Below are positions 2,060-17,325 of a stretch of DNA of 17,325 bases, piece after piece. The position numbers were made by a program, and so were the translations under genes. Numbering within the stretch: position 1 is the stretch's first letter; every line of letters starts with the position of its first letter. The notes under the pieces were generated by a model. The model searched no databases, was not told the DNA's origin, and was given only the letters and a program-made list of their open reading frames with translations. The DNA comes from Candidatus Bathyarchaeia archaeon (lineage in GTDB: Archaea; Thermoproteota; Bathyarchaeia; TCS64): assembly GCA_050014495.1 (NCBI GenBank), contig JBEKDF010000050.1:1-17325 (forward strand), in the 5' to 3' direction.

Positions 2060-2221
2060 CAGTATCCCAATTCACATCTGATTTGTTGCATTTTGAGTTA
2101 GCAGCGCGTTACTGGTAAATTTTCATTTCATTAAAAAATTCGTAAATAGAAGGGCTTCCCAAGAACTTGCGCATTTAAGGAATGTTAATTATCCTCTAAC
2201 TTCATCATCAAATAGAAAACT

Positions 2222-2494: not shown

Positions 2495-2584
2495 TCGAGA
2501 ACGCGAAGTCCGTGGAGATCGCGTTCACGTTGTTATGGTTTAATAAACATAACATAAGCTTCGATAAGCTAGAGGTGTACAAAA

Positions 2585-3112
2585 ACGAACAACAGAAACA
2601 TAATCATAGTGGCAGCTGTAGTACTCGTCGTAGCAGGCGTCAGTGTCGTTGCTTGGCAGCTATTAAAGCCGAATAACCACATAACCGCAAACGCCACCTG
2701 GACTCTAAAACTCAACGGTAAGATATCAGAAACAATCGACGCCAACACCCTAATACAGCTCACAAAAGCATCAGCCAACGGCGGAGCCTCTTGGACAGAC
2801 TCAGACGGCTATATCTATTTTGGAATACCTTTGTGGATTCTCGTTGGCCGAGTCGATGACACTCAACCATCAGGCTTCAACAGCACGCTTGCGGATCTCG
2901 GCTACTTGGTGAGGGTGAAGGGCTCGGATGGCTTCTACAGAGACTTAACTTCAGCCAGTGTAAAGATGAATAACGATATCATCGTTGTGTATGAGATGGA
3001 TGGGAAGGCCTTACCCAGTAACGCGTATCCTCTTGAGTTGGTTGGGGCTGTCCCCAATAAGGGCTGGATGGTGAGGCTGATCGCTGAGATAGACATCATC
3101 TTCCCGAGTTGA
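2585..3112 (+). CDS. Membrane-anchored molybdopterin-oxidoreductase (sulfite oxidase-like) domain protein lacking Cys
   Basis: N-terminal TM; GIPLWILV, VKGSDGFY, IIVVYEMDGKALP..YPLELVG motifs. Start is either the in-frame ACG 2585 behind GAGGTG or GTG 2609. Confidence 0.65.
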   Translation, partial: TNNRNIIIVAAVVLVVAGVSVVAWQLLKPNNHITANATWTLKLNGKISETIDANTLIQLTKASANGGASWTDSDGYIYFGIPLWILVGRVDDTQPSGFNSTLADLGYLVRVKGSDGFYRDLTSASVKMNNDIIVVYEMDGKALPSNAYPLELVGAVPNKGWMVRLIAEIDIIFPS

Positions 3113-3183
3113 CCATCTATTGCTCGCGCACGCGACGACACCCCTCTCAGGATGATCGTGTTCATATGCGAAGCCACGTTTTT

Positions 3184-3603
3184 TTATGAAGGAATTTTGT
3201 TCATAAACTCGTTTCCAGCTGCAGTTAAAATTGTGACGTTAACGCTAGTATAGCCCAACCCATTCCCAATGAACAGGTTAAAGACTGTCTTCGAGCCCGG
3301 CATAATGACTGGACTTATCAAAGGGGTATCCGTCGATATCTCCGTAGGGTCCGGTGGGAAGTTTCTGCCAGTCACCGGCGTGCCATTTACAATTATTTCA
3401 GCTATCTTAACCGGAACAGCGCCAATGTTCTTCACCGTTATAGGAACCGTATTGAGCTTACATGCGCAGTCTATAAATCCAGTTATCTCTAACTTCTCCT
3501 GAGGCATTACAGAGCTGGAGAAGACCTCCATCTCTCCCACATAGAAGAACGATGCCGCAAAGATCACCGCGACGAGAATATAGATCATATATATTTTTTG
3601 CAT
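3184..3603 (-). CDS. Membrane-anchored pilin/archaellin-like beta-sandwich protein
   Basis: N-terminal hydrophobic helix; ITVKNIGAVPVKIAEIIVNG and VTILTAAGNEF resemble archaeal type IV pilin-like globular domains; GGAGGG upstream of ATG 3603. Confidence 0.55.
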   Translation of the reverse strand: MQKIYMIYILVAVIFAASFFYVGEMEVFSSSVMPQEKLEITGFIDCACKLNTVPITVKNIGAVPVKIAEIIVNGTPVTGRNFPPDPTEISTDTPLISPVIMPGSKTVFNLFIGNGLGYTSVNVTILTAAGNEFMNKIPS

Positions 3604-3664
3604 CAAAAATCCCTCCCGTCCGCTGTAATTGAACCTTTGTTTAATTTTTAATAGTTAAGGGATG

Positions 3665-4333
3665 CTAAGGAATAACCTTCAGTCCGGTATAGATCATATA
3701 TATCCCAGCGAGGATGAGAACCACGCCGTTCACCTTCTTCAGAAATGGCAGCGCCGCTAACAAATGATTGTGTAGCAAGTCCTTCGCCAGAGTCAACGTG
3801 ATGGTCAGTGGGATTATCAGCGCCGCAGCACCGGCACCATACGCAGCAAATAACCACAACAAGTCGATAAAGCTCTTCGCGGATGAGCTTTGGAGTACAA
3901 TTATTAGGAAGACGGGCAGGCTGCACCCGAGGGAGGCGACCCCGTAGGCAACGCCGTAGGTTAGAAACGAGATTTGGCTCGCACCATTGATCTTAAGACC
4001 TAAACTTGGAAGTCTATCCATAAACGTCGTCCAACCAGTGAGTAGACCGATTATTATCAACACAAAACCTAGCACAGGACCTGCAAGCCAAATGTATCTC
4101 TGAAACTCAGCGGCCATGATGGAGGGTATTATGCCCACGAGTAGGAAAACGGCTAGGAATCCAGCTGACATTAAGCAGGATTGGAGGAGACCACTTGCCA
4201 GCCTTTTTCCAGCTCTTTCACTACTAATATAGTATGATACGTAACTCGGCATCATGGGCAGTGCACAGGGGCTTAGGAAGGACAGGGCCCCGGCGGTGAA
4301 CGCGAGGCTCAACTGCGCTGCATCCATCTTCAA
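3665..4333 (-). CDS. ccdA: Cytochrome c biogenesis protein CcdA (DsbD transmembrane domain)
   Basis: AFTAGALSFLSPCALPMMPSY and second Cys in LGCSLP; six TM segments. Confidence 0.9.
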   Translation of the reverse strand: MKMDAAQLSLAFTAGALSFLSPCALPMMPSYVSYYISSERAGKRLASGLLQSCLMSAGFLAVFLLVGIIPSIMAAEFQRYIWLAGPVLGFVLIIIGLLTGWTTFMDRLPSLGLKINGASQISFLTYGVAYGVASLGCSLPVFLIIVLQSSSAKSFIDLLWLFAAYGAGAAALIIPLTITLTLAKDLLHNHLLAALPFLKKVNGVVLILAGIYMIYTGLKVIP

Positions 4334-4337
4334 ATCA

Positions 4338-4838
4338 CTAACTGTTCGCGTTAATTATCTGGATCAACTGCTCATAGGATGTGTAGAAGCCACGGTACCT
4401 TATAGTTCCAGACTTGTCTACCACAACAAGTGTTGGCACCGCGCTAACCTTGTAGTTATCGATAGCAGTTGGCGAGTTACCTATTAGCCAACTTACCTTA
4501 TTATTCTTGGCGAAAGTCAATAAGTCTGACTCGCTGGTACCGTCAACGTTGACTGATACGATGACTAACCCCTTTTGAACCTGTAACTGTCTTAGGGCGT
4601 CGAATTCTTCTACGCAGACTGAGCAGGTTGTCGTCACGAAGTCGAGGACCACAGTCTTACCCCTCTGCGTCGATAGGCTGAACGTCTGCCCGCTTGTGTC
4701 GTTCAACTTCATTTCTACCGCTTGATCTCCCACGTTGACTCCCGGAGGCGCTGATCGGTTGGATGTTACCCAGTAGGCGAACGCTGAGATCCCCACGATC
4801 AGGGTGAGCATGAGTGCGGCGGTGGTCTTAGTATTCAT
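4338..4838 (-). CDS. Membrane-anchored TlpA/ResA-like thiol-disulfide oxidoreductase
   Basis: GKTVVLDFVTTTCSVC (CxxC), cis-Pro motif VSAVPTLVVVDKSG; co-oriented with ccdA, 4 nt apart. Confidence 0.88.
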   Translation of the reverse strand: MNTKTTAALMLTLIVGISAFAYWVTSNRSAPPGVNVGDQAVEMKLNDTSGQTFSLSTQRGKTVVLDFVTTTCSVCVEEFDALRQLQVQKGLVIVSVNVDGTSESDLLTFAKNNKVSWLIGNSPTAIDNYKVSAVPTLVVVDKSGTIRYRGFYTSYEQLIQIINANS

Positions 4839-5067
4839 CCTCTCAGGCTTTTAGGGATCGATCTTTAAAAACGAACCTAAACAAGAAAATAGTTTTCAGG
4901 GAGGATTGACAAGTTTGCAAGTTTGCGCATAGAGGGGGATGCCTCTGTTGTCCCTCTCAGATAGCAACTTGTTGGTCTGCGTAATATTTTGGATCATTCA
5001 CTAACACAAGCGCGTTTTGTTAAGAGAATGTTGATATTCAAAGCTGCAGAGGCATTATTAAGTCATC

Positions 5068-5568
5068 ATGAGCAGTAAATTGACAAGAACATCAATAGTC
5101 TTAGTGGCAGCTCTTACGCTTGTAATCGTGGCATCAATTTTTACATACATTACCTATGGTCAAGCTAAGAATAGCGGCGTGGAGCAGGCAAAGATCATCC
5201 TATACTATAGCGAGCTCGTCTCGATGCCGAGGACCACGGTAAACGCTGACCTTTACTGCGTCGACAGCCTCATCGACCATGGGAACTGGACGGGTGTGAA
5301 GCTTGGATCCGTGCTTGAAAAGGCTGGGCTAAATCAGCAGGTGGAGAACGTGGAGTTCCACGCCAGTGACGGGTACTCGATAACGATACCGTACTCGGTG
5401 GCTATGCGGGGGGATGTGATAATAGCATATGAGAAGGATGGCAGCAACCTGCCGGAGTTGACTCGCTTGGTTATTCCTAATGCGAATGGCGACGAGTGGA
5501 TCAGCAAAATCACCCAAATTAAAATTATTTTTTCATCTGGCAACTATGTGTCGATTTATCTGAGGTAA
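5068..5568 (+). CDS. Molybdopterin-dependent oxidoreductase domain protein (sulfite oxidase/MsrP family)
   Basis: N-terminal TM; LYCVD, WTGVKLGSVLEKAG, FHASDGYS, IIAYEKDG, RLVIP...WISKITQI. Confidence 0.8.
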   Translation: MSSKLTRTSIVLVAALTLVIVASIFTYITYGQAKNSGVEQAKIILYYSELVSMPRTTVNADLYCVDSLIDHGNWTGVKLGSVLEKAGLNQQVENVEFHASDGYSITIPYSVAMRGDVIIAYEKDGSNLPELTRLVIPNANGDEWISKITQIKIIFSSGNYVSIYLR

Positions 5569-5728
5569 AACTGAGACTGCTAGCGATTGAGCTAGCCATT
5601 TTTTCCATGTATGAGATTTCAATAAGTTCGAGTAATGCCCACTTTCCTGTTTACATGAACTATTATGGATCCTTTTTGTAAGTCAAGGAATATATTCCAC
5701 TGTTGCAAATTTAATTTTGGTGATGTTT

Positions 5729-5902
5729 TTGTCGAAGGCACAACCGCACCCTGGACATGAGAAACATCTCTGTAAGTTGGTCGAGGATAAGACCCCAACT
5801 GAGAAACTTAAGCCCCTGGTAAAAAACCCCAAGTATATCTGTAAAGGCTGTGGAAGAGCCGCGGCTAAAGCGGAGAATCTCTGCTCACCCGAACCCCTTT
5901 AA
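5729..5902 (+). CDS. Small Cys/His-rich (probable Zn-binding) protein
   Basis: HLC...YICKGCGRAA...NLCSP; GGTGA RBS at 5719-5723 favours TTG 5729 (ORF track start 5717); T8 tract at 5916-5923 follows. Confidence 0.7.
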   Translation: MSKAQPHPGHEKHLCKLVEDKTPTEKLKPLVKNPKYICKGCGRAAAKAENLCSPEPL

Positions 5903-6221
5903 ATACCGTTTCACCTTTTTTTTACGTGCGCGTTACCGCGCTTCCATTCGGTATTTAGGGGCAGGTTTGTCGGTTTGAGAAGGGTGGTTTCTGTAAGAGG
6001 TCAGGATGGATTGTGAGGCTTGGAATTAATTTCCAAATCAACAAATGGGTTTAAAGACCATTTAAAAACAATATCTAAACAACCTCGCGAAAGATGTGTG
6101 CCTCGTTTAGTCGGTCGAGCTAGTACAAACCATATTAACCAAGATTGCGACGACAACAATATGTCTCTCTCCGACATGAGACAACATATCAGAAAACGAC
6201 ACCACAGCACCAGCGTATCAG

Positions 6222-7205
6222 GTGAATGAATTGGTACTATCACCGATACACTTCGCTCCATCCATCGCAGCAGCCATACTAACCATACTCCTAGCATTCA
6301 CCAAACATGACAGAAGCCACAAGTTGCTGGCCTATGGGATGGTGTTCTTCGCAGCGATCGGGTTCGCCGGCTTCATACTGGGTGACTGGACACAGCTCCT
6401 AGGCCTTAGCTTTCACTCGATACACGCTTGGGTGGGGTTACTCGTCCTCTCCACATCAGTCGCCACCTTCCTCCTAAATCGCAGATATCCGTGGCTTCAC
6501 TGCCAGCTTGGGAGGGTTGCAGGGATACTTGCGTTGATCTCCTTAGCGATGGGCTTAGTGATATTGTTTGGTCTGACTCCAGGCATCCAGACATCGGCTA
6601 GCACGGTACCCCTTCAGTATCCTGCCTCAAGTAAGCTACCTGAGGTCGAGGCAAAAGAGTTCATGAATACAACACTAGAGCCCATCTCGAGTCAGGGAAA
6701 CAATGCAATAATTGGAACCCAAATAATAGACCGGGGGTCATACAGGTTAGTGGTCAGCGGCCTTGTAAATAAGACGCTCACCTTGACGTACGATGATCTC
6801 CTCAACCTCCCGGCTTATTCTGAGAACGCTTACATGCCGTGCGTGGAGGGGTGGGGATTCTGGGCGAAGTGGACGGGCTTCCGAGTAACTGACCTATTAG
6901 ACGAAGCTGGAGTCTCTAAGGATGGCGTTTACGTGGTCTTCTACTGCGCGGACGGGTACTCCACAGGTCTCCCAATCAAGTATCTGAGAGACAATCATAT
7001 CCTTTTAGCCTATGGCCTGAACGACGTTACGCTTCCCCCAGATAGAGGGTTCCCTCTTCAGCTTGTCGCTGAGAGCAAGTATGGCTACAAGTGGGCGAAA
7101 TGGATAGTCAAGATCGATGTCGTGAACCAGGAGGTTCAGGGATACTGGGAGTCCCGTGGCTACACTGACTCGGCTGACGTTGGGACCTTCCCCTTCGTTC
7201 CTTAA
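6222..7205 (+). CDS. Molybdopterin-dependent oxidoreductase (MsrP/YedY-like) fused to an N-terminal 4-TM His-containing domain
   Basis: MPCVEGW Mo-ligand Cys, WTGFRVTDLL, ADGYSTGLP, RGFPLQLVAESKYGYKWAKW, GYWESRGY. Confidence 0.88.
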   Translation: MNELVLSPIHFAPSIAAAILTILLAFTKHDRSHKLLAYGMVFFAAIGFAGFILGDWTQLLGLSFHSIHAWVGLLVLSTSVATFLLNRRYPWLHCQLGRVAGILALISLAMGLVILFGLTPGIQTSASTVPLQYPASSKLPEVEAKEFMNTTLEPISSQGNNAIIGTQIIDRGSYRLVVSGLVNKTLTLTYDDLLNLPAYSENAYMPCVEGWGFWAKWTGFRVTDLLDEAGVSKDGVYVVFYCADGYSTGLPIKYLRDNHILLAYGLNDVTLPPDRGFPLQLVAESKYGYKWAKWIVKIDVVNQEVQGYWESRGYTDSADVGTFPFVP

Positions 7206-7248
7206 GACTTTCAAATGATACTTTGTGTGCGCGAACGCGGGCATGCTT

Positions 7249-8217
7249 CTACAATACTGGTAGGAGCTGCTCCTCGATCATGTTTAGCATTTCAAGCGCT
7301 GGCGTCGGTTGAAGTATCACGTAGTCGAAGCCCAGATCTGATAACCTCTTCACCCTATCAGCTATAGTTGAGGGAGATCCCACGAAGCCTCTGGCGACGA
7401 TGTTACGGTAGAGGTTCTCATTCTCGCCCGCCAGCCTCTTAACGATACTCCTCGCCTCCTCATCGGATTCGCCTATAAATATCTGCCCAGGAATAGCAAA
7501 CATCATCTTCCTTCCGCCACGCTCACCGAGCATGCTCCCCATTCTATGGGTCTTCTCCTCCGCCTCATCGATTGTTGATGCGCTCATCAGCCACCCATCC
7601 GCCAAGTCTGCGGCGAGCTCCATCGACTTCTTCGAATCTCCACCCCACCAAATTGGCGGATGGGGCTTCTGCACTGGCTTAGGTTCAAGGACCCCCTCGA
7701 CTATTTCGTAGAACCTCCCTTTGTAGTTCGTCGTAGGCTGCGTCCATAGAGATTTGATGATCTCTATCTGCTCCCTCGCGACATCGATCTTCGTATCGTG
7801 ATCATACCAGGGAGCACCATAGGCTTGGAACTCCCTCTGGTACCAGCCTGAGCCTATTGAGAACCTGAACCTGCCGTCGGAGACGTCGTCGAGCGTCGCA
7901 GCCATCTTCGCGAGGACGGCGGGGTACCTGAAGCCCTGGCAGATGGTTGTGTGGAAGAGCTCGATTCGAGTTGTCTGAGCCGCTATAGCGGTTAGGGTTG
8001 TCCATGCCTCAAGTGAGGGTTCTCGTTCCCCCTTGATTGGGTTGAGCATGTGGTCTGGTACCCAGATTGAGTGGATTCCGATGTCCTCCGCCTTCTTGGC
8101 CGAATCAGCTGCGTACTTGTAGTTGGGCTTTGCCTCGTTCTCCTTCACACCCCTTGTCCAGCCCCCGTAAACTGGGGCGTATATTCCAAGCTTGGTCTTC
8201 AAGTCATTCACTTCCAC
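7249..8217 (-). CDS. LLM-class (luciferase-like, probably F420-dependent) oxidoreductase
   Basis: SIWVPDH, EAWTTLTAIAAQT, RYPAVLAKMAATLDDVSDGR, PKPVQKPHPPIWWGG. Confidence 0.92.
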   Translation of the reverse strand: MEVNDLKTKLGIYAPVYGGWTRGVKENEAKPNYKYAADSAKKAEDIGIHSIWVPDHMLNPIKGEREPSLEAWTTLTAIAAQTTRIELFHTTICQGFRYPAVLAKMAATLDDVSDGRFRFSIGSGWYQREFQAYGAPWYDHDTKIDVAREQIEIIKSLWTQPTTNYKGRFYEIVEGVLEPKPVQKPHPPIWWGGDSKKSMELAADLADGWLMSASTIDEAEEKTHRMGSMLGERGGRKMMFAIPGQIFIGESDEEARSIVKRLAGENENLYRNIVARGFVGSPSTIADRVKRLSDLGFDYVILQPTPALEMLNMIEEQLLPVL

Positions 8218-8289
8218 GGGTTTTCTTGCTAGATATTCCTTTAACGGAACTTAAAGACACGCACTTAGAATAATACGTGCGTGGCGCGA

Positions 8290-8470
8290 GATCTATGGAG
8301 CTGGGTCAAGTTCAGGCCGGTGATTGAAGAGAACAGGAGAAGATTCTCTGGAAAGGACATCCTCACTGGTTTCGAGTACCTTGGCGATGAGCTGATGAAG
8401 CTTAAGAAGGTGAGGGATCCAGGTTTCGAGATCCCGGCGGAATTCACTAGGTATATTTCCAAAAAAGTAA
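8290..8470 (+). pseudogene. 5'-deleted remnant of an array-family (DUF4760-like) paralog
   Basis: WVKFRPVIEENRRRFSGKDILTGFEYLGDELMKLKKVRDPGFEIPAEFTRYISKK aligns with the C-terminus of 15427..15975 (YAKYRPVIEEGRRRYHGKDYQRDFEFLADEVLRVMKEKDPTFVFPETLDKYVPDK); no N-terminal part or upstream repeat. Confidence 0.85.
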
Positions 8471-8480
8471 CTTTCTATCT

Positions 8481-8527
8481 CAATAGCCTTATCCTCACTT
8501 CCACCTGACTCTAATCTGTGAACTAGT
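8481..8527 (+). repeat. Array leader repeat copy 1 (promoter/RBS-containing)
   Basis: caatagccttatcctcacttccacctgactctaatctgtgaactagt directly before TTG 8528. Confidence 0.95.
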
Positions 8528-9049
8528 TTGGTGGATTTAGCACTTCTACAGAGTGTATCGTACATAGCTGGTGCCCTAGGAGTATGCGTAGCTGCAGTCT
8601 ACTACATAATTAACCTTAGATTCCAAGTTGAGTCCCGTAAAGCCCAACTATTCCAACAGCTAATAGTACCATGGCTTTCTAACGACTTCCAAAGAGAAGG
8701 AGCCGAACTGCTAGCAATGAAGTGGACGGACTTCGACGACTTCGCGAGGAAGTACGATTCAAGCGTTAACCCGGATAACTGGGCTATGAGAGCCAAGCAT
8801 TGGACCTTTCTCGAAAACATAGGCTATTCCGTTAAGAGGGGGCTGATAGACGCTGACATGGCGTATTATGAGTTGGCGGGGTTCTACGTGTTGTGGATGT
8901 GGGATAAGTTTGGTCCCGTGATTACTCAGTATAGGAAGACGATCAATATTCCTGAGTGGTTTATCAACTTCGAGTATTTGGCTAAGGAGCTTCATAAGCA
9001 GCATCCTATTGAGATTCGTGAGGTTTATGGGGAGTATAGGCCGAAGTAG
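8528..9049 (+). CDS. Array paralog, membrane-anchored DUF4760-like protein (N-terminal type B)
   Basis: TM helix ending YY; W.DFDDF..KY, LENIGYSVKRGLID, W.KF.P.I, FEYLA motifs shared with the other paralogs. Confidence 0.85.
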   Translation: MVDLALLQSVSYIAGALGVCVAAVYYIINLRFQVESRKAQLFQQLIVPWLSNDFQREGAELLAMKWTDFDDFARKYDSSVNPDNWAMRAKHWTFLENIGYSVKRGLIDADMAYYELAGFYVLWMWDKFGPVITQYRKTINIPEWFINFEYLAKELHKQHPIEIREVYGEYRPK

Positions 9050-9063
9050 GACCTCGATTTCCT

Positions 9064-9109
9064 CAATAGCCTTATCCTCATTTCCACCTGATACTAATCC
9101 AGTGATTAT
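9064..9109 (+). repeat. Array leader repeat copy 2
   Basis: caatagccttatcctcatttccacctgatactaatccagtgattat before ATG 9110. Confidence 0.95.
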
Positions 9110-10564
9110 ATGGTTGAATCAAGGACTAGAACAACTACCCGAAACTTGAAAATCGAAGAAACTCTTGACCCTGAAAACTGGGAGGAGATGAAGGACCTTG
9201 CAAGAAGAATGGCCGAGGATATGGTCACCTTCCAACAGAACATACGAGAGGAGCCTGAATTCAAACCAATACCTGAACCAGTCATAGAGTATCTAAAACA
9301 AAGTGCCCCTCGAGAGGGAATTGGAACTGAAGAGGTCTACCAGGAGTTCCTCACCAAGATTCTTGCAAATCACGGTAGCTGGTATCAGGGACCAAAGTTT
9401 TGGGCTATGGTTTTAGCCAACAGCACTCCCTTCGCGGCACTCGCCGAAATGTGGCGTTCAGGCCTTAACACCTCATCTGGCTGGCCTGCCCAATTGGACA
9501 CGAAGGTCGAGTTACAGGTGATACAGTGGTTCAAGGAAGTCCTCGGATACCCGAGTGAAGCATCGGGGGTGCTAGTCTCAGGGGGATCGATGGCGAACCT
9601 AGTCGCATTAACGGTTGCGAGGAACGCCAAAGCTGGCTACAACGTTAAGGAGATGGGTGTGAATGGGAAACTCACCTTCTATGGCTCCAGCGAGATGCAT
9701 AGCTCAATACAACGAGACCTGGAGACCCTCGGTGTGGGAAATGAGCAGCTTAGGAGAATACCCTCTGACGAGAACTATAAAATACGAATCGACGAACTGG
9801 ATAAAAGAATTGAGGAGGACAAGAAGAACGGCTACACGCCTGTTTGTGTAATAGGTAACTCTGGCTCAACTAACACCGGTTCCTTCGATGACTTCAACGC
9901 TTTATCGGAGCTGTGTAAGGAGAAGAACCTCTGGCTCCACGTTGACGGAGCCTTCGGAGCCTGGGTGGCATTATCGCAAAAGTATAAGCACCTGGTTTCC
10001 GGGCAGGAGAAGGCTGACTCCCTATCCTTCGACCTTCACAAGTGGATGTACATGCCGTTTGGGATCGGATGCACCCTGGTTAGGGACGCGGATGCTCACT
10101 ATCATACCTTCTCGGCTCACGCCGAGTATATCGCCCATGAGGATCGTTGGTTGATCGATTATGGTCCGGAGTTGAGTCGCCCTTTTAGGGCTTTGAAGGC
10201 ATGGATGTGCTTAAAGGAGCATGGCTTCGACAAGTATGGTCGGTTGATTGAGCAGAATATTGATCAGGCGAAGTATCTGAAGAGTTTGATAATGTCTCAT
10301 GCTGAACTTGAGTTGTTGGCACCCGTCGCCTCGAATGTTGTGTGCTTCCGATATGTGAGGGAGGGAGTTGACGAGAAAGGTCTCGATGTGATTAATCAGA
10401 GGATATTCGAGGAGGGTATGAAGGAGTTAGAGTTTGGTTATTGGCCCTCGAAGGTTGGGGATAGGTTCGCTATTAGGATTTGTATTGTGAATCACAGGAC
10501 TAGGCGTGAGGATCTTGCTCAGTTTGTTGACTGGGTTCTCGAAACGGGGAAGAAGGCTACTTAG
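9110..10564 (+). CDS. Group II PLP-dependent amino acid decarboxylase (aromatic-L-amino-acid/glutamate decarboxylase family)
   Basis: SGGSMAN, HSS, WLHVDGAFG, SFDLHKW (PLP lysine), ELSRPFRALK. Confidence 0.93.
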   Translation: MVESRTRTTTRNLKIEETLDPENWEEMKDLARRMAEDMVTFQQNIREEPEFKPIPEPVIEYLKQSAPREGIGTEEVYQEFLTKILANHGSWYQGPKFWAMVLANSTPFAALAEMWRSGLNTSSGWPAQLDTKVELQVIQWFKEVLGYPSEASGVLVSGGSMANLVALTVARNAKAGYNVKEMGVNGKLTFYGSSEMHSSIQRDLETLGVGNEQLRRIPSDENYKIRIDELDKRIEEDKKNGYTPVCVIGNSGSTNTGSFDDFNALSELCKEKNLWLHVDGAFGAWVALSQKYKHLVSGQEKADSLSFDLHKWMYMPFGIGCTLVRDADAHYHTFSAHAEYIAHEDRWLIDYGPELSRPFRALKAWMCLKEHGFDKYGRLIEQNIDQAKYLKSLIMSHAELELLAPVASNVVCFRYVREGVDEKGLDVINQRIFEEGMKELEFGYWPSKVGDRFAIRICIVNHRTRREDLAQFVDWVLETGKKAT

Positions 10565-10573
10565 GTTTTAGGG

Positions 10574-10620
10574 CATAGTCTTATCCTCACTTTCACCCGA
10601 TACTCAATTAGTGATGATTA
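10574..10620 (+). repeat. Array leader repeat copy 3
   Basis: catagtcttatcctcactttcacccgatactcaattagtgatgatta before TTG 10621. Confidence 0.9.
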
Positions 10621-11226
10621 TTGGTTGATGCGCAGACGGTTGGAGTTTTGGTCACAGGAGCGAGTGTGACGGTGGCGGCGATATACTATGTGATGAACAT
10701 CAGAATAAGCCAGAGGAACCAGGAGCTGAGTCTCAAAGCCCTTGAACAATCCGCTAAGACTCAGGAACTACAATTAAAGGCTCAGGAGCAGAACCTCGAA
10801 ACAAGACAGGCGCAGCTATTCATGCAGCTCTTCGACCGATTTAGCGGAACGGAGCTATCAATGGATTATGGTAAGCTGAGATACGACATCTGCCCAAAAT
10901 GCCACGACAACCCAGAGGAGTTTGGGGAGTACGTCACAAGGGAGATAAACGATCACTTTAATCCCGAGGTGTTTCTTCCGGTTCACCAGTTCGCTCTCTT
11001 CTTTGAGGGAGTCTCAGTTCTCGCCCAGAAGAGGCTGATAGATATGGATATGGTGGACAGACTCTTCGCTGACCGGATAGTCTGGTACTGGAATATGGCC
11101 AAGCCCCGCATACTCCAAGACAGGAAGGTTCAGGGACCAGAGCTGCTATCAAACTTCGAGTGGCTTGCCAATCAGATGGCAGGTAAATATACCGCACGTA
11201 CACAGTCGGGCCAGATTCTCCAATAA
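10621..11226 (+). CDS. Array paralog, DUF4760-like (type A anchor, 36-aa stalk)
   Basis: MVDAQTVGVLVT..YY, ETRQAQLFMQ, FFEGVSVLAQKRLID, NFEWLA. Confidence 0.85.
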   Translation: MVDAQTVGVLVTGASVTVAAIYYVMNIRISQRNQELSLKALEQSAKTQELQLKAQEQNLETRQAQLFMQLFDRFSGTELSMDYGKLRYDICPKCHDNPEEFGEYVTREINDHFNPEVFLPVHQFALFFEGVSVLAQKRLIDMDMVDRLFADRIVWYWNMAKPRILQDRKVQGPELLSNFEWLANQMAGKYTARTQSGQILQ

Positions 11227-11271
11227 CAGTTTTTATCTTCATCCGGATCCTAAACATATCTCGTGATTAGT
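11227..11271 (+). promoter_or_regulatory. Degenerate leader (TTTATC box plus GTGA RBS) with the same geometry as the array repeat
   Basis: agtttttatcttca...cgtgattagtATG; TTTATC 11232-11237 lies 34 nt before ATG 11272. Confidence 0.6.
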
Positions 11272-12255
11272 ATGGTCAACTGGTTGAGGGAGTCGAGAGA
11301 CCCGAGGCACAGACCGACGCTTGACGACTTCAGGGACGCGTCTATAAGGCTTAACGGTGTCATCCTCCGAACACCCCTGATTCCCCTGAGGAGGTACCGG
11401 GAGGAGGACACAGGTATCTATCTAAAGCCCGAGGTCCTGCAACCCATAGGCAGCTACAAGATAAGAGGAGTCTACAACTGGGTCGCGAGACTCAAACCCG
11501 AAGAGAGAGCCCGGGGAATCGCCACACTTAGCTCGGGGAACATGGCACAAGCCGTGGGCTATGTAGCTAACCTATTCAACATACCCTCAAGGGTAGCAAT
11601 ATCAGAAGCAGCGCCTCAGAGCAAGATCAACAACTGCAGGAAATATGGCTCTGAGATCGAGCTAGTCAAGTTCAACGACGAGACCTTCTCCAACGCTGAC
11701 TCACTCGCCCACGGTCACTGCTTCATCCACACCCTAAGAGAGTACGGTTTGATGGACGGTTACGGGACCATAGGCTTGGAGGTACTTGAGGACACACCAG
11801 ACGTCGACACAATATACGTGGCACTGGGAGCTGGGTTCTTATCGTGTGGAATATCCCTCGCGGCGAAGGCACTGAATCCAGGCATAAGAGTCATCGGAGT
11901 CAACGCCGAGAACAGCCCACATTACTACTCTGCGCTTAGAGGGGGCAAACCGATTCCATACAACTTCAAGCCGACGATAGCCGACGGAATCGACCCCGGC
12001 GGTGCCCTAATGCCGAAGGAATCTATCGAGATGGTTCGGGAATGCCTGGACGATGTTGTCACAGTGTCTGAGGAGGAGATGATTAAGGCTATTCGCCTGC
12101 TAGCCGTGGAGAATAAGCTGGTGGTGGAGGGGGCCGGGGCTTCGAGTCTGGCGGCTGCGTTTAAGTCGCCTAAAGGGGAGCGTGGTAAGTCTGTTTGCAT
12201 ACTTTCTGGTGGAAGCATTGATGCTGTGAAGCTCGCCCACATACTTGAGAATTAG
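11272..12255 (+). CDS. PLP-dependent threonine/serine dehydratase (or racemase) family enzyme, no regulatory domain
   Basis: LKPEVLQPIGSYKIRG (PLP lysine), SSGNMAQAV, GYGTIGLE, VVEGAGA, ILSGGSID; ATG 11272 follows the GTGA RBS (ORF track start 11263). Confidence 0.9.
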   Translation: MVNWLRESRDPRHRPTLDDFRDASIRLNGVILRTPLIPLRRYREEDTGIYLKPEVLQPIGSYKIRGVYNWVARLKPEERARGIATLSSGNMAQAVGYVANLFNIPSRVAISEAAPQSKINNCRKYGSEIELVKFNDETFSNADSLAHGHCFIHTLREYGLMDGYGTIGLEVLEDTPDVDTIYVALGAGFLSCGISLAAKALNPGIRVIGVNAENSPHYYSALRGGKPIPYNFKPTIADGIDPGGALMPKESIEMVRECLDDVVTVSEEEMIKAIRLLAVENKLVVEGAGASSLAAAFKSPKGERGKSVCILSGGSIDAVKLAHILEN

Positions 12256-12260
12256 TCGCT

Positions 12261-12310
12261 AATAGCAGGTCTTATCCTCACTTCCACCAGAATGTAATCA
12301 GTGATGAATA
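12261..12310 (+). repeat. Array leader repeat copy 5
   Basis: aatagcaggtcttatcctcacttccaccagaatgtaatcagtgatgaata before ATG 12311. Confidence 0.9.
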
Positions 12311-12886
12311 ATGGTTGATGTTAGTTTGCTTCAATCGGCATCGTATGTGGCAGCAGCGATAGGAGTCTGCATGGCAGCATTCTACTACGCATTAAACCTA
12401 AGAGAAACAACGAGGAACCGACGCATGGCACTCACCACGAACCTCATGCAGTCACTCTTCTCCGAGGAGGGAAACCGACGCTTCCTAAACCTACTGATGA
12501 TGGAGTGGAAAGACCAGGATGACTTCATGAAGAAGTACGACTCGAGGGTGAACGGCCAGAACTTCATAGATAGGATGACCTACTGGGAGGCATGCGAGAT
12601 ACTGGGATACCAGTACAGGGCTGGGCTCATCGATAAGCAGACGCTGTACGGCATCGGGCGGGGGCAGATCACGGCGGTTTGGGCGAAGTTCAAGCCCGTC
12701 ATCGAGGAGTACAGGAAGGCCGACTTTCTCCCGGATATGTTTGAGAACTTCGAGTTCCTCGCAAATGACCTGTGGAAGATCGCTGAGGGTAAGGGTGCTA
12801 CTGGTAGGCGTTATGAGACTCATGGGGTCAGGGCGGATGAGTATGAGGGTGCCTTTAGTGGTGAGGGGGCTAAGCAGGGTCTGTAG
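12311..12886 (+). CDS. Array paralog, DUF4760-like (type B anchor)
   Basis: MVDVSLLQSASY..YY, WKDQDDFMKKYDS, EILGYQYRAGLID, WAKFKPVIEEYR, NFEFLA. Confidence 0.85.
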   Translation: MVDVSLLQSASYVAAAIGVCMAAFYYALNLRETTRNRRMALTTNLMQSLFSEEGNRRFLNLLMMEWKDQDDFMKKYDSRVNGQNFIDRMTYWEACEILGYQYRAGLIDKQTLYGIGRGQITAVWAKFKPVIEEYRKADFLPDMFENFEFLANDLWKIAEGKGATGRRYETHGVRADEYEGAFSGEGAKQGL

Positions 12887-12890
12887 GTGT

Positions 12891-12937
12891 CAATAGCCTT
12901 ATCTTCACTCCTACCTGACTCTAACCAGTGACTTATA
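12891..12937 (+). repeat. Array leader repeat copy 6
   Basis: caatagccttatcttcactcctacctgactctaaccagtgacttata before TTG 12938. Confidence 0.93.
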
Positions 12938-13492
12938 TTGGTTGATGCGCAGACGGTTGGAGTATTGGTCACAGCGGCAAGCGTGACGGTAGCGGCGTTC
13001 TACTACATCTACAACCTCAGAGTATCAAACCGCATGAGTCGAATCACATTCACAAACAGCATACTCCAGAGCCGCATAATCAAAGAAGAGATGAAGGTTT
13101 ACGTCGAACTACTAAATGACAGCTGGGACAGCTACCAGGACTACCTGAAGAAGTACGGGGAGGGGAACAGCGAAGGCTGGGCCCGCTCGAGGGCGTGGTT
13201 CTACTTCTACGACACACTGGGGTACCTTCTCATGGATAAGGTGGTGGATAATCGAACCCTGTACACTGGTGGTGGGGGTGGAATAGCGGTTATTCGGCTG
13301 TGGACTAAGTTTTCGCCGATATTCAGGGAGATGAGGGCCACTGGTTCTGAGGATTATATGAAGGGTTTTGAGTATCTCTTCTATGAGATAGCTCGAATGC
13401 GTGACAGGCTTGATCCGAGCTTCGAGAGGAATAACCCGGCCTCTTATTCTCTTTATAAATCGGGCGAGTACGAGGCACCCTTTTCGAAATGA
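12938..13492 (+). CDS. Array paralog, DUF4760-like (type A anchor)
   Basis: MVDAQTVGVLVT..YY, WDSYQDYLKKYG, YDTLGYLL, WTKFSPI, GFEYL. Confidence 0.85.
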   Translation: MVDAQTVGVLVTAASVTVAAFYYIYNLRVSNRMSRITFTNSILQSRIIKEEMKVYVELLNDSWDSYQDYLKKYGEGNSEGWARSRAWFYFYDTLGYLLMDKVVDNRTLYTGGGGGIAVIRLWTKFSPIFREMRATGSEDYMKGFEYLFYEIARMRDRLDPSFERNNPASYSLYKSGEYEAPFSK

Positions 13493-13539
13493 TCGGTGAT
13501 TGGAAACGGGTGCTTATTGGGGGATTGATCTCAATCGAG

Positions 13540-13585
13540 ATAGTCTTATCCTCACTTCCACCTGACTCTAATCCAGTGATGATTA
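13540..13585 (+). repeat. Array leader repeat copy 7
   Basis: atagtcttatcctcacttccacctgactctaatccagtgatgatta before ATG 13586. Confidence 0.95.
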
Positions 13586-14227
13586 ATGGTTGACTTAACG
13601 TTGCTCCAGTCGGTTAGCTACATCGCTGGGGCGTTGGGAGTATGCGTAGCTGCGATATATTATGTGATGAACCTGAGGATTAGCCAGCGGAACCAGCAGC
13701 TTAGCCTGCAAGCACTGGAACAATCCGCTAAGGCACAGGAACTCGGCTTGAAGACCCAGGAGCTCGCCTTGAAGTCCCAGCAGCAGAACCTAGAGACGAG
13801 GCAGGCCCAGCTCTTCATGCAGATATACCTACGCTACCTCGAACCGGACCTATTCAGCGACAACCTGCCAAAACTCTTCAAAAGAAGCTGGAAGGGTGCC
13901 GAGGACTACTGGAAAAAATATGAAACCGAAAAAGACGGGGGAAACCTAAACATGATGATGGCCTTCTACGAGGGCATCGCGGTCCTGGTCAACAGGGGCA
14001 TGCTTGACATCGGCCTAGTTTATGAGATCATGCCGACGAATGTGACTGCCTTCTGGGGAAGGTATGGCACTCTGATTAAGGAGATGAGGACCATGGGCTA
14101 CCCTCCACGATTGTATTGCTTGGTTGAGGAGCTCTCTGATAAGTTAACTGAGTACGCTAAGAAGAAAAGTGATCAAATAGTAACGGACTACACAGCAGCA
14201 GAATTGAGGCCCTCCAATCCAGTATGA
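13586..14227 (+). CDS. Array paralog, DUF4760-like (type B anchor, 43-aa stalk)
   Basis: MVDLTLLQSVSY..YY, ETRQAQLFMQ, FYEGIAVLVNRGMLD. Confidence 0.85.
   Translation: MVDLTLLQSVSYIAGALGVCVAAIYYVMNLRISQRNQQLSLQALEQSAKAQELGLKTQELALKSQQQNLETRQAQLFMQIYLRYLEPDLFSDNLPKLFKRSWKGAEDYWKKYETEKDGGNLNMMMAFYEGIAVLVNRGMLDIGLVYEIMPTNVTAFWGRYGTLIKEMRTMGYPPRLYCLVEELSDKLTEYAKKKSDQIVTDYTAAELRPSNPV
13736..13777 (+). repeat. 21-nt in-frame tandem duplication (one heptad)
   Basis: caggaactcggcttgaagacc / caggagctcgccttgaagtcc, 18 of 21 identical (QELGLKT QELALKS). Confidence 0.85.
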
Positions 14228-14240
14228 TTACTGCACGCGC

Positions 14241-14263
14241 TAGTCTTATCTTCACTTCAACCT
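14241..14263 (+). repeat. Truncated array leader repeat (5' half only, no gene follows)
   Basis: tagtcttatcttcacttcaacct then unrelated atgcgtacgcg; no GTGA or start. Confidence 0.8.
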
Positions 14264-14289
14264 ATGCGTACGCGTTTTGGAACCTTAGT

Positions 14290-15273
14290 TTATTTAATCG
14301 AGAAAAGCTTCCTCGCGTTCTCCCCGAGGATCATCTTCTTCTCCTCCTCCGTGAAGGCGCTCTCCCTTATGCTCGTTATGGCACGAGGCAGGTCACCGAT
14401 CACGTGAGGATAGTCGCTCCCCATCAGCATCTTCTCCGCTCCAACGAAGTCATAGGCGCAATTCAGCGCCGGCTGATAGAAGGTGACTGTGTCGTAGTAC
14501 ATGTTCCTGAGGAACTCGCTTGGAGGCCTGGAGATGTTCACCTTACACTCGGGATACGCCCTGTAGCAGAAGTCGAGCCTCTCCAGAAGGTAGGGCAGGG
14601 TCCCACCAAGGTGCGCGAGGATAAGCTTCAGGGAGGGATACTTCACGAACACGCCGCTGAAGATCATCCTCAGCGCACCCAGTGAGGTGTCGAAGGGGAA
14701 TCCGATCATCGGGGCCAACCGGTAGTCCTTGAAGATGTCGCCCGCGAGAGGCGTAAATGGGTGCATGAAGAGCGGGACACCCATCCTGGATATCTTGTCG
14801 TAGATGGGCCAGAGCTCAGGTGAGTCGAGGGTCTTCCCCGCTAGGTTGGAGAAGGTGACTACGCCCTTCATCCCCAGGTCATTGACCGCCCGGTCCAGCT
14901 CATCCATGGCCCCGTCAATGTCGTTGAAGGGGAGGGTGGCCATGCCGGCGAACCTGTCCGGGTACTTCTCGGCGATCGCGGACGTCTCGTCGTTCACGAG
15001 CCTCGCGAAGGCGATGCTGTCCTTCGGCTCCATCGAGTAGACGGATGGCGTCGTCATGCTCAGGATCTGCATATCCATGCCGCCCTTATCCATGTCCTTC
15101 AGCCTCTTCTCGATGTTGCTCATCTCCTCGGTTATAGTGACGATCCTGACGCCTCGGTCCACGATGATGGGGCGCCCCAGCTCGTCCTTTTCGAGGACGG
15201 GTGAGGTCTTTCTCTTCTTGAGTGCTTCGAGGTATTTTGGTGGGAAGTAATGAACATGAACGTCGATGCTCAT
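14290..15273 (-). CDS. Amidohydrolase-2 family protein (ACMSD/aromatic acid decarboxylase-like)
   Basis: MSIDVHVH (HxH), LFMHP, LAHLGGTLPYL, MGSDYPH; ATG 15273 has a GTGA RBS and CTTATC box upstream (ORF track start 15333). Confidence 0.9.
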   Translation of the reverse strand: MSIDVHVHYFPPKYLEALKKRKTSPVLEKDELGRPIIVDRGVRIVTITEEMSNIEKRLKDMDKGGMDMQILSMTTPSVYSMEPKDSIAFARLVNDETSAIAEKYPDRFAGMATLPFNDIDGAMDELDRAVNDLGMKGVVTFSNLAGKTLDSPELWPIYDKISRMGVPLFMHPFTPLAGDIFKDYRLAPMIGFPFDTSLGALRMIFSGVFVKYPSLKLILAHLGGTLPYLLERLDFCYRAYPECKVNISRPPSEFLRNMYYDTVTFYQPALNCAYDFVGAEKMLMGSDYPHVIGDLPRAITSIRESAFTEEEKKMILGENARKLFSIK

Positions 15274-15318
15274 CTTCAGTTCACGGAGAGAGTTTAGAAG
15301 CACCCTGAGATAAGACTT
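15274..15318 (-). promoter_or_regulatory. Probable promoter/RBS of the amidohydrolase gene
   Basis: Minus strand reads agtCTTATCtca...ccGTGAactgaagATG; CTTATC is 35 nt before ATG, the same spacing as in the repeat. Confidence 0.6.
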
Positions 15319-15379
15319 CGGAGGCGGATTCATTACTGTAATCGCTTTGGAATAGTCTTCATGTTGATGGTCCCATCCT

Positions 15380-15426
15380 CAATAGCCTTATCCTCACTTC
15401 CACCTGACCCTAATCCAGTGATTCTA
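15380..15426 (+). repeat. Array leader repeat copy 9
   Basis: caatagccttatcctcacttccacctgaccctaatccagtgattcta before TTG 15427. Confidence 0.95.
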
Positions 15427-15975
15427 TTGGTTGATGCACAGACGATCGGAATATTGGTAACAGCTGTAAGCGTGACGATAGCAGCGGTCTACTATGTGAT
15501 GAACCTCCGAGTCCAGCAGAGAAACGTGAAGACCACCATCGAGACGAGGCGAATAGGACTCCTAGACAGCGTCATCAATCGAGCGAGCGACGCAGAGGGG
15601 ATGAGGTACTTGTTTGAACTAATGAGATATGAGTGGAGCGACTACGGGGACTTCGAGAGGAAATACGGTTCAGAGAACAACCCCGAAGCCGCAGCCAAGA
15701 GATATGCGTTGTGTAACACCTACAACTCGATTGGCATGATGATCCGTAAGGGTCTGGTTGACGCTGTGGACCTCTACGATTTGGGTTTAACGGGTCCAAT
15801 CTACCTATATGCGAAGTACAGACCCGTCATCGAGGAAGGTCGGAGGAGGTACCACGGGAAGGACTACCAGAGGGACTTCGAGTTCCTCGCGGATGAGGTG
15901 CTGAGGGTCATGAAGGAGAAGGATCCCACATTCGTTTTCCCTGAGACTCTTGACAAGTACGTCCCGGATAAGTGA
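15427..15975 (+). CDS. Array paralog, DUF4760-like (type A anchor, 15-aa stalk)
   Basis: True start TTG 15427 (MVDAQTIGILVT) by homology; WSDYGDFERKYGS, YNSIGMMIRKGLVD, DFEFLA. Confidence 0.85.
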   Translation: MVDAQTIGILVTAVSVTIAAVYYVMNLRVQQRNVKTTIETRRIGLLDSVINRASDAEGMRYLFELMRYEWSDYGDFERKYGSENNPEAAAKRYALCNTYNSIGMMIRKGLVDAVDLYDLGLTGPIYLYAKYRPVIEEGRRRYHGKDYQRDFEFLADEVLRVMKEKDPTFVFPETLDKYVPDK

Positions 15976-15981
15976 ACGTCA

Positions 15982-16028
15982 CAATAGCCTTATCCTCACT
16001 TCAACCCGACTCTAACCAGTGATGAATA
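15982..16028 (+). repeat. Array leader repeat copy 10
   Basis: caatagccttatcctcacttcaacccgactctaaccagtgatgaata before ATG 16029. Confidence 0.95.
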
Positions 16029-16622
16029 ATGGTAGATCTAGCTGAGGTCCAAACAGCCTACTACATGGTGGCAGCAACCGGAGTAATCGTGGCAGCGATC
16101 TACTACGTCTACAACATGAGGATAAGCCAGAGAAACTCAGCACTAGCCCTAAAAGCGCAGGAACAGAACCTCGAGACGAGGCAAACCCAGCTCTTCATGC
16201 AGGTCATGGATCAAATGGATCAGCAGTGGCAAGCCGACTTCTGGGATCTGCTCAACAACTGGCAGTGGGAGGACTTCGACGACTACATGAAGAAGTACGG
16301 CACACTAGAGAACCCCAAATTCATGAACGTATTCAGCACCCTAGAGCACATCGGAATACTCGTCAACGATGGGCAGCTGAACCCGAGGAGATTATACCTC
16401 TGGATTGGGGGGTTCCTTATCTCGCTGTGGAGCAAGTATGAGCCAGTAATCCTGGGGTGGAGGGAGAGGTACGAGAAACCTCCTAAGGGCATGTTCTCCG
16501 AGTTCGTCGAGTCTCTTGTTCTGGCGATGAGTAATGAGCGGAGGGTGGATGATTTCAGTGCACGCTTGGAGTCGAGGAGGCTTGCCTGGGAGTCCCTCAG
16601 AGCGGCATCATCCCCTCAATAG
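16029..16622 (+). CDS. Array paralog, DUF4760-like (type C anchor, 22-aa stalk)
   Basis: MVDLAEVQTAYY..AAIYY, ETRQTQLFMQ, WEDFDDYMKKYG, LEHIGILV, WSKYEPVI; stop TAG lies inside the next repeat. Confidence 0.85.
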   Translation: MVDLAEVQTAYYMVAATGVIVAAIYYVYNMRISQRNSALALKAQEQNLETRQTQLFMQVMDQMDQQWQADFWDLLNNWQWEDFDDYMKKYGTLENPKFMNVFSTLEHIGILVNDGQLNPRRLYLWIGGFLISLWSKYEPVILGWRERYEKPPKGMFSEFVESLVLAMSNERRVDDFSARLESRRLAWESLRAASSPQ

Positions 16623-16663
16623 CCTTATCCTCACTTCCACCTGAGTGTAAGCCGTGAACATGC
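16617..16663 (+). repeat. Array leader repeat copy 11
   Basis: caatagccttatcctcacttccacctgagtgtaagccgtgaacatgc before TTG 16664. Confidence 0.93.
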
Positions 16664-17206
16664 TTGTCTGAGATTCAAACAATAGGAGTGATAGTGACTG
16701 CTGCAAGTGTGACGGTAGCAGCGATCTACTACATCTTCACGCTGAGGATAAACATGAGGACACAGCAACTGGCACTCAAGGCACAGGAGCAGAACCTAGA
16801 GACGCGCCAGGCCCAGCTATTCCAATCGGTTTACTCCAAGTTCTCGGCAAGGGAGGTCCTCCAAGACTTCAACGCAATCACGTTATGGAGCTGGAGAGAC
16901 TACGACGACTTCATGGAGAAGTATGGGCCGAACCACCCAGAGCATTACGTGGGTTTCTGGGAGCTGGCTAACTTCTACGAGGGCATAGGCGTCTACTTGA
17001 AACGGGGTCTACTTGATGCGGGCATGATAGATGATTTCCTCAGCGGACCGATACGCATCTTCTGGGAGAAGCTGAGGCCCATTATACTTGAGCATAGGAA
17101 GAGGGAGAACTGGCCAACTTATGGGGAGTGGATTGAGTACCTCTACAACGAGATCCAGCCAATAGCACTAAGGCAGCACCCAGAGATTGAGACCAAAACC
17201 AAATAA
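16664..17206 (+). CDS. Array paralog, DUF4760-like (type A-like anchor, 22-aa stalk)
   Basis: QTIGVIVTAASVTVAAIYY, ETRQAQLF, WRDYDDFMEKYG, NFYEGIGVYLKRGLLD, WEKLRPII, WIEYL. Confidence 0.85.
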   Translation: MSEIQTIGVIVTAASVTVAAIYYIFTLRINMRTQQLALKAQEQNLETRQAQLFQSVYSKFSAREVLQDFNAITLWSWRDYDDFMEKYGPNHPEHYVGFWELANFYEGIGVYLKRGLLDAGMIDDFLSGPIRIFWEKLRPIILEHRKRENWPTYGEWIEYLYNEIQPIALRQHPEIETKTK

Positions 17207-17248
17207 TCTTATCCTCACTTCCACCTGACCCTTACTCAGGTGAATGTA
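17202..17248 (+). repeat. Array leader repeat copy 12
   Basis: aataatcttatcctcacttccacctgacccttactcaggtgaatgta before TTG 17249. Confidence 0.92.
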
Positions 17249-17325
17249 TTGGTTGATGCGCAGACGGTTGGAGTGTTAGCGACAGCGGCAAGCGTGACAG
17301 TTGCGGCGATATACTACATGATAAC
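17249..17325 (+). CDS. Next array paralog (type A anchor), cut by the window edge
   Basis: TTG GTT GAT GCG CAG ACG... = MVDAQTVGVLATAASVTVAAIYYMI; not in the ORF track. Confidence 0.85.
   Translation, partial: MVDAQTVGVLATAASVTVAAIYYMI

Follow-up and report, generated by a model that had tools for sequence, protein, structure and literature searches.

CRISPR adaptation is regarded as descended from casposons, and the known casposons use, to our knowledge, one or few targets. Casposases are described as duplicating 14 to 15 bp and needing leader determinants (PMC6614799), and casposons as stacking in tandem, in both orientations (PMC4779613, PMC10359463); PolB-poor family 5 casposases, close to I-A Cas1, have been proposed (Salgado et al. 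2022, PMC9755687). The stretch analysed here, called the window, is an entire contig of 17,325 nt (JBEKDF010000050.1, contig C50 of the assembly designated G000) from a Candidatus Bathyarchaeia archaeon, in which paralogous DUF4760 genes and single enzyme genes are separated by a 30-nt repeat. An original prediction, made from the window alone, described the paralogs as mosaics. The mosaicism is real and is quantified below; the main finding is that the repeat is a genus-wide cassette site shared with elements that carry a Cas1 and no PolB. This genome-wide role of the repeat as a cassette boundary, also used by the Cas1-carrying elements, had been missed.

One-gene units recur with boundaries inside the repeat

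The G000 assembly comprises 3.1 Mb in 92 contigs and is 96% complete, and the sequencing runs containing the window are mostly labelled as peat or wetland metagenomes. In two runs (X2 and X3), contigs with zero differences tile the array at single-copy depth, equal to that of the flank, which confirms the order of the array and argues against a misassembly; this check rests on contigs throughout, not on reads. An 18-nt motif of the repeat occurs 11 times on the plus strand of the window, and a twelfth, degenerate copy can be aligned ahead of the PALP gene. The repeat is found before each paralog, before the decarboxylase gene (9110), and on both sides of an inverted amidohydrolase gene.

A weight matrix detected 203 repeat sites in G000 and none in a reversed-sequence control. 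A DUF4760 start lies 30 to 69 nt downstream of 88 sites, the stop codon of the upstream DUF4760 gene falls within the repeat in 24 of 72 cases, and many sites devoid of a DUF4760 gene retain anchor remnants. In a class-wide survey, the repeat was matched in 19 of 401 genomes, and copy numbers of at least 5 were restricted to this genus (158 copies in G000, 5 to 89 in nine other members). One exact copy was seen in a genome of another family (L079, G298:C119:935-960), and corresponds either to a transfer or to mis-binning.

Same-strand sites delimit 129 intervals, mostly of one gene each, with 74 open reading frames (ORFs) other than DUF4760, in both orientations (hereafter 'cargo'). In near-identical pairs placed between different neighbours, the match is lost within the next repeat, at +16 to +21, for five pairs, and begins at -5 to -10 of the repeat for three. 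A 94% identical copy of the PALP unit of the window, found in run X19, departs from the window at 12288, within the next repeat, and a 79% identical counterpart of the unit at 15427..15975 in genome G002 stops at the same point (+20) of the following repeat. Of the 21 cross-genome alignments listed, 7 start as well as end inside repeats in each of the two genomes; they correspond to 4 distinct G000 units, one of them non-DUF4760 cargo. We conclude that units, whether DUF4760 or cargo and in either orientation, recur with new neighbours and have their boundaries inside the repeat. Recombination had been predicted in the repeat and the first codons, and the boundaries of these near-identical pairs bear it out.

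Some cargo genes open on a DUF4760-type leader and first codons (MVE, MVN or MVD), namely those at 9110 and 11272 of the window, L025:7830 and G000:C72:1142, which suggests capture under the expression signals of that leader. Other schemes for the units were tried and rejected: insertion of a circle passing the unit's own leader downstream, and tandem duplication (adjacent leaders, P = 0.73; cross-leader scores not high for 9 pairs, 1 skipped; like-anchored neighbours 8/44, with 14.3 expected); and four-base inverted tips on ordinary units, as the symmetry CTCA..TGAG was present at only 6 of 30, 4 of 50 and 1 of 7 TGAG sites. Joints seen in contigs, which might have indicated live excision, are accounted for by paralogs elsewhere.

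Within the repeat, variants left and right of an invariant CTTATCC were unlinked, a test of limited power. The right-arm variant is genome-specific: TGAG occurs at 1 site in G000, 30 in G009 and 50 in G011. A dominant right arm that differs between species is what homogenisation within a genome should produce. A diverged form of the repeat precedes DUF4760 genes in G021, a member of another genus, so that the repeat probably began as a DUF4760 leader; G012, for its part, has 12 repeat sites and no Pfam match to DUF4760. No hairpin was found, with mean folding z-scores of -0.16 to +0.25 over both strands of the 203 sites and with RNA as well as DNA parameters, and an attC-like or riboswitch structure was rejected on this ground; Rfam gave no family and a single chance match to a microRNA. 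Two other identities were discarded: a fragment of an antisense gene, given the fixed third positions and the lack of a common long ORF, and tRNA mimicry (best local score to real G000 tRNAs 11, compared to a mean of 11.7 after shuffling). Scans of the repeat for sigma-70 promoters and terminators remained at chance level, with models not suited to archaea. Viral contigs contained neither an exact repeat nor a tract site (see below), and the literature searched, including papers on casposons and Bathyarchae*, held nothing on this repeat. The genome has some 19 copies of an 80- to 100-nt element with three to four direct copies of a degenerate core; this element frequently lies between two repeats and is possibly a multi-site binding platform.

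Core sites, tract arms and a stand-alone Cas1

The core of the repeat, taken as 12 to 14 bp, is present in its 12-nt form in 173 exact copies, compared to 1 in the control. This core is joined either to the ordinary arms or to a G/T-rich tract on its left and a C/A-rich tract on its right, and all four combinations occur. A G/T arm ends 7 of the 19 G000 units that begin with a C/A arm, compared to 15 of 110 for the others (P = 0.02); at the loci of relatives, many of them chosen for the presence of cas1, the corresponding values are 6 of 10 and 5 of 50. One tract unit of G000, devoid of cas1, has inverted ends of 114 nt, and one 233-nt flank lies left of the core at one place and right of it at another.

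Among the clusters of repeated ORFs in G000, the second-largest is that of a stand-alone Cas1 (9 members, mostly fragments). This Cas1 exceeds the cut-off for TIGR00287 and PF01867, and in the copy of contig C80 the catalytic E, H, D and E are all present in an alignment inspected by eye. Neither Cas2 nor, by a 20-mer scan, a CRISPR array was found in the G000 assembly (96% complete). The Cas1 matched 4N06 with E = 2e-19 and 6OPM with E = 5e-12, entries which we take to be an archaeal I-A-like Cas1 and the M. mazei casposase, respectively.

Three full-length cas1 genes of G016 sit in tract-tipped units of 3.4 to 6.1 kb, with the core at both ends and tips of 10 to 15 nt; these three bounded elements contain no ORF longer than about 380 aa, hence none of PolB size, and the neighbours scanned match no polymerase family. 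The cas1 of G012:C4 has one recognisable element end. In G000, a tract site lies within 2.5 kb of the cas1 3' end in 5 of 10 cases, the null expectation being 4% genome-wide and 14% near any site. The dinucleotide CC at -7/-6 was found at 15 of 25 element-start junctions, compared to 41 of 216 ordinary sites, an enrichment that fits a 14-bp duplication. Finally, the Cas1 clade is present in 7 of the 9 repeat-rich members of the genus and in none of the 8 repeat-poor ones, these related genomes not being independent.

Downstream of cas1, the element end carries a low-complexity C/A/T tract of 100 to 150 nt that differs between copies, suggestive of slippage or non-templated synthesis. Genes next to cas1 reappear in other elements; they comprise a winged-helix protein, small basic ORFs and one ORF with a P-loop-like motif, and have almost no family matches. 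A retro-mechanism, such as that of diversity-generating retroelements (DGRs) or retrohoming, was rejected, since G000 has no match to the reverse transcriptase family PF00078. An IS110 donor or target was likewise rejected: none of the three IS110 copies in G000 was listed beside a core site.

Anchors, stalks and C-domains of the DUF4760 proteins

All eight complete paralogs of the window belong to DUF4760 (PF15956) and to no other Pfam family, with C-domains of 14 to 40% mutual identity. In G000 as a whole, Pfam gave 74 matches and a local profile 124, of which 89 have a repeat site just upstream. Such an expansion ranks among the larger ones of paralogs in archaea, with demonstrable shuffling of modules, and a full-text literature search turned up the family in a single paper.

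Mosaicism was tested on 80 aligned full-length genes, the other 44 family matches being excluded as partial or broken. Typed by pattern, the anchors were of type A (33), B (19), C (25) or D (3). Separate histories had been predicted for the segments, and these are indeed incongruent. On the C-domain tree (113 columns, many forks unresolved), anchor labels required 36 changes, compared to a mean of 38.2 after shuffling and a possible minimum of 3; its well-supported branches alone force 15 (A), 14 (C) and 11 (B) changes. The Mantel correlation between anchor and C-domain was 0.05 (P = 0.07), compared to 0.57 between the two halves of the C-domain, used as a control. This random placement of the anchor type on the tree argues that anchors are swapped between proteins, and different anchor types are borne by 4 of the 12 pairs whose C-domains share 65% identity or more. 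The stalk was correlated with the C-domain (r = 0.40), and with the anchor at r = 0.16, which does not support the three independent modules that had been proposed. At four-fold sites, anchors of the same type differ by 52% and C-domains by 70%, in agreement with the lower 5' synonymous divergence expected. We conclude that anchors are exchanged and partly homogenised, and that the stalk mostly stays with its C-domain.

Within the window, every predicted paralog start is present, and the first 26 nt are, as reported, identical at 10621, 12938 and 17249, with 15427 differing at 4 of the 26. The proposed anchor strings were right in outline, with 16664 a variant, but the type A copies each depart by 1 to 4 residues; type B holds overall at 8528, 12311 and 13586, with 12311 looser (AAIG for GALG). 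The paralogs at 10621 and 12938 have anchors 91% identical and C-domains 14% identical; the latter, described as very different, are nevertheless members of one family. Between 10621 and 13586, the stalk is 86% identical, the anchor 52% and the C-domain 20%. A nearly common stalk behind different anchors is confirmed; 10 of its 13 four-fold sites differ, which points to an old stalk type and not to a recent transfer. The pair C47/C72 switches at the ETRQAQ motif, which shows a second breakpoint in occasional use. In the arrays of the whole genome, neighbouring paralogs have the same anchor type in 8 of 44 cases, below the 14.3 expected by chance; perhaps same-type neighbours delete each other, which would account for this shortage.

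AlphaFold (127 sequences, paralog 16664) gave a confident all-helical model (predicted local distance difference test 90), in which a single 60-residue helix, comprising anchor and stalk, is followed by a six-helix domain. Basic residues follow the hydrophobic anchor, so that by the positive-inside rule the domain is likely cytoplasmic, which speaks against the analogy with surface proteins that had been drawn. The DUF4760 proteins are predicted to be single-pass helical binders facing the cytoplasm. The top three structural matches of both models were plant EDS1, PAD4 and SAG101 (PDB 7XEY, 8ZF0, 4NFU), in a region that is presumably their EP domain. These matches had Z-scores of 9 to 10, within the chance range of helical bundles, a root mean square deviation of 3.3 to 3.6 over 122 to 123 residues for the best two, and Foldseek template-modelling (TM) scores of 0.53 to 0.55, with E values of 0.1 or worse and 10 to 15% identity; no sequence-profile match accompanied them. 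The likeness of the C-domain to the EP domain would therefore be weak, and a lead only. In the part of 10.64898/2025.12.03.692087 available, EDS1 is named and DUF4760 is not. The best viral fold match to the full model was BFVD entry A0A3G8F6F1, an unnamed viral protein of 193 aa (TM 0.60, E = 0.027), and Atlas matches were all below 0.9 and either unnamed or DUF6082. PADLOC matches were weak throughout, and any one of its families was matched by only 1 of the 127 members. A role in sensing or defence would be a guess; variable membrane-tethered binders, perhaps for virus sensing, are a possible but rather doubtful form of it.

The features are collected in Table 1. Upstream of the array, positions 37-8217 hold ordinary accessory genes by Pfam: a helix-turn-helix regulator, a beta-propeller lactonase-like protein, a thioredoxin/AhpC protein, two proteins with molybdopterin oxidoreductase domains and a luciferase-like monooxygenase. 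A short ORF at 2222-2494 has no Pfam match and looks truncated. GC-alternating runs at 8255-8290 and 14233-14275 coincide with the cut points of the DUF4760 remnant and of the leader behind repeat copy 7.

Table 1. Repeat copies, genes and related elements, with window positions unless a contig or locus is named (HMM, hidden Markov model)
Feature	Position	Strand	Basis
DUF4760 remnant, 5'-truncated, ends at first repeat	8269..8508	+	own-HMM match, profile positions 128-181; ORF 8281-8508
Repeat copy 1, 30 nt; 14-nt core 8481-8494	8479..8508	+	motif scan, alignment
DUF4760 paralog, anchor type B	8528..9049	+	Pfam, alignment
Repeat copy 2	9062..9091	+	motif scan, alignment
Cargo: pyridoxal-dependent decarboxylase, begins on DUF4760-type leader (ATGGTTGA)	9110..10564	+	PF00282, E 4e-62; alignment
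Repeat copy 3	10571..10600	+	motif scan, alignment
DUF4760 paralog, anchor type A, long stalk; first 26 nt as at 12938 and 17249	10621..11226	+	
Degenerate repeat copy, under scan thresholds	11223..11252	+	alignment
Cargo: PALP (threonine dehydratase-like) enzyme	11272..12255	+	PF00291
Repeat copy 4	12262..12291	+	motif scan, alignment
DUF4760 paralog, anchor type B (AAIG subtype), short stalk	12311..12886	+	
Repeat copy 5	12889..12918	+	motif scan, alignment
DUF4760 paralog, anchor type A, short stalk	12938..13492	+	
Repeat copy 6	13536..13565	+	motif scan, alignment
DUF4760 paralog, anchor type B, long stalk	13586..14227	+	
Repeat copy 7; leader truncated just past repeat	14236..14265	+	motif scan, alignment
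Cargo: amidohydrolase, inverted between two same-strand repeats	14290..15273	-	PF04909
Repeat copy 8	15378..15407	+	motif scan, alignment
DUF4760 paralog, anchor type A	15427..15975	+	
Repeat copy 9	15980..16009	+	motif scan, alignment
DUF4760 paralog, anchor type C; stop codon within next repeat	16029..16622	+	
Repeat copy 10	16615..16644	+	motif scan, alignment
DUF4760 paralog, variant type A; stop codon within next repeat; structure predicted	16664..17206	+	
Repeat copy 11	17199..17228	+	motif scan, alignment
DUF4760 anchor type A, cut at contig end	17249..17325	+	
Multi-core element of 80-100 nt, examples	G000:C7:91909-91989, C75:3809-3905, C85:3533-3615; G002:C23 (L036 13676-13757)		
Variable C/A/T tract ends	L040:18700-18845, L042:11680-11807, L043:14190-14315, G000:C1:151900-152044		
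Recurrent cas1-neighbour genes	L044:11556-12416, L042:7688-8011, L043:9732-10079, L039:7294-7905		

Candidate mechanisms and related systems

The reading to which we give slightly better than even chances is that of a stack of one-gene units in which anchors are mixed, likely by homologous recombination, and in which the core is likely the target of a PolB-less Cas1. The repeat would first have derived from the DUF4760 5' leader. Elements tipped by C/A and G/T tracts, some of them with cas1, would then insert at the core in either orientation, duplicating about 14 bp and bringing cargo into these loci. Lastly, a common module of 110 to 130 nt (repeat, leader and anchor) would flank each DUF4760 body, and exchanges whose left end falls in the anchor and whose right end falls in the repeat would move bodies between anchors and homogenise this module within a genome. 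Since ordinary units lack target duplication and inverted tips, we infer two layers, Cas1 landing at the core and homology-driven shuffling of bodies. Left boundaries scattered in leader and anchor, together with right ones restricted to the repeat, would be the expected outcome of exchange at the nearest homology.

Several observations weigh against this reading. For the shuffling, 30 nt is a short length of repeat for recombination of the RadA type, homogenisation of anchors at synonymous sites is only partial (0.52 compared to 0.70), and purifying selection also keeps anchors alike. For the landing of Cas1, the window contains neither cas1 nor a tract arm; the sole intact cas1 of G000 (C80) has a tract site at one side only; and one of the three G016 copies (G016:C13) has a Lys at the first catalytic Glu. 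Hybrid-armed units are common (15 and 12 in G000), a rare core allele is common to both ends in only 1 of 36 and 2 of 18 tract units, and the repeat-rich genomes G005 and G013, which are fragmented assemblies, gave no match to this Cas1 clade. As for ordinary units, they share a rare core allele at both ends in 0 of 95 and 0 of 45 cases and have no inverted tips; in their duplicated pairs, the upstream unit keeps the bases at -7/-6, which is not what a 14-bp target duplication would give. A bolder version is one that we consider improbable: Cas1 would be domesticated as a cassette integrase moving one-gene units among some 200 sites, with recombination in leader and anchor building about 120 receptors with an EDS1-fold domain.

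The observations on ordinary units bear most directly on a scheme that we regard as unlikely, in which Cas1 itself excises and reinserts all units, DUF4760 included, by recombination between cores, anchor swapping being a side effect. Unit ends do lie in a repeat also used by Cas1 elements, with right ends clustered at +16 to +28; repeat number and cas1 presence go together; and excision of the M. mazei casposon is described as leaving one empty site (PMC10359463). Yet the missing tips and rare-allele duplications, and -7/-6 bases that travel with the upstream unit, stand against it, and movement of the DUF4760 units by Cas1 is not supported by any target-duplication signal (0/95).

Somewhat less probable still, the repeat might be a mere promoter, terminator or translation leader of DUF4760 genes, with arrays formed by duplication, deletion and gene conversion, and the link to cas1 due to shared accessory islands. 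The fixed spacing of 30 to 69 nt to the start (88 sites) agrees with this, as do the diverged leader in G021, a genome without a match to this Cas1, the cargo genes starting on the leader, and the anchor remnants kept at many DUF4760-less sites. It leaves unexplained the cores with tract arms on both sides, the same-strand sites bracketing inverted cargo, the 114-nt inverted ends, and the 12 sites of G012.

Three tyrosine integrases located near arrays were found in 1, 3 and 1 of the 9 repeat-rich genomes, one also in a repeat-poor genome, at a cut-off of 1e-30 at which Cas1 is still detected in 6 of the 9; this profiling covered 3 of the 13 PF00589 matches, the remaining ten including the likely XerA, and the three scanned scored at most 26 bits against an IntI cut-off of 265. 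Recombination of cores by a tyrosine recombinase (XerA or an island integrase), in the manner of pdif modules or integron cassettes, is a poor candidate: the genome has 13 such matches, several near arrays, hybrid arm combinations resemble attL/attR, and an archaeal integrase is described as able to act on segments of identity of only 104 bp (PMC8371274), but the core shows by inspection no 11-6-11 dif symmetry and no hairpin, flanks on both sides of an asymmetric core are unexpected for a directional overlap, and the three integrases track the repeat poorly.

The array is not a CRISPR array, a DGR or a toxin/immunity locus, and does not appear to be an integron. Integrons and superintegrons, archaeal ones among them (10.1101/2022.02.06.479319), resemble it in their one-gene units, same-strand arrays, diverse cargo and a stop codon often inside the site, and the Vibrio cholerae repeats (VCRs), genome-specific integron repeats, recall the one described here. 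Unlike in integrons, the site has no hairpin, no IntI was found among the three integrases scanned, there are many separate arrays, and each unit brings its own leader. In polymorphic toxin/immunity loci and antigenic-variation cassettes, too, a constant 5' block is recombined onto variable 3' parts. The swapping of different C-terminal domains, proposed on that model, is not supported: the 3' parts are of one family, each copy has its own start, no immunity gene is present, and the domain is likely cytoplasmic.

The closest resemblance is to casposons. As in families 1 to 4 (AciBoo-C1, MetMaz-C1, NitAR1-C1), as described in PMC4046053, PMC4779613, PMC6614799 and PMC10359463, Cas1 stands alone, lacking both cas2 and a CRISPR array, and there is tandem stacking on one target in both orientations; inverted tips and a direct repeat of about 14 bp at both ends would be further likenesses. 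Unlike in those descriptions, the bounded elements contain no PolB-sized ORF, their tips are short low-complexity tracts, the target is the leader of a protein gene present some 200 times instead of a tRNA gene or a single intergenic site, and most units have neither cas1 nor tips. With family 5 casposases, compared by description and not by sequence, the elements share a mostly PolB-less state, the catalytic residues and proximity to the subtype I-A Cas1; the available text of PMC9755687 describes no target site, cassette arrays or Bathyarchaeota. A Cas1 element appears to use a site of about 200 copies that also delimits mobile one-gene units. If the core is, as seems likely, a landing site of the Cas1 type, the array would amount to a gene library that resembles an integron and relies on chemistry related to that of CRISPR. 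It would stand midway between transposon, integron and CRISPR array, with a defined 14-bp core and arms that are testable in vitro.

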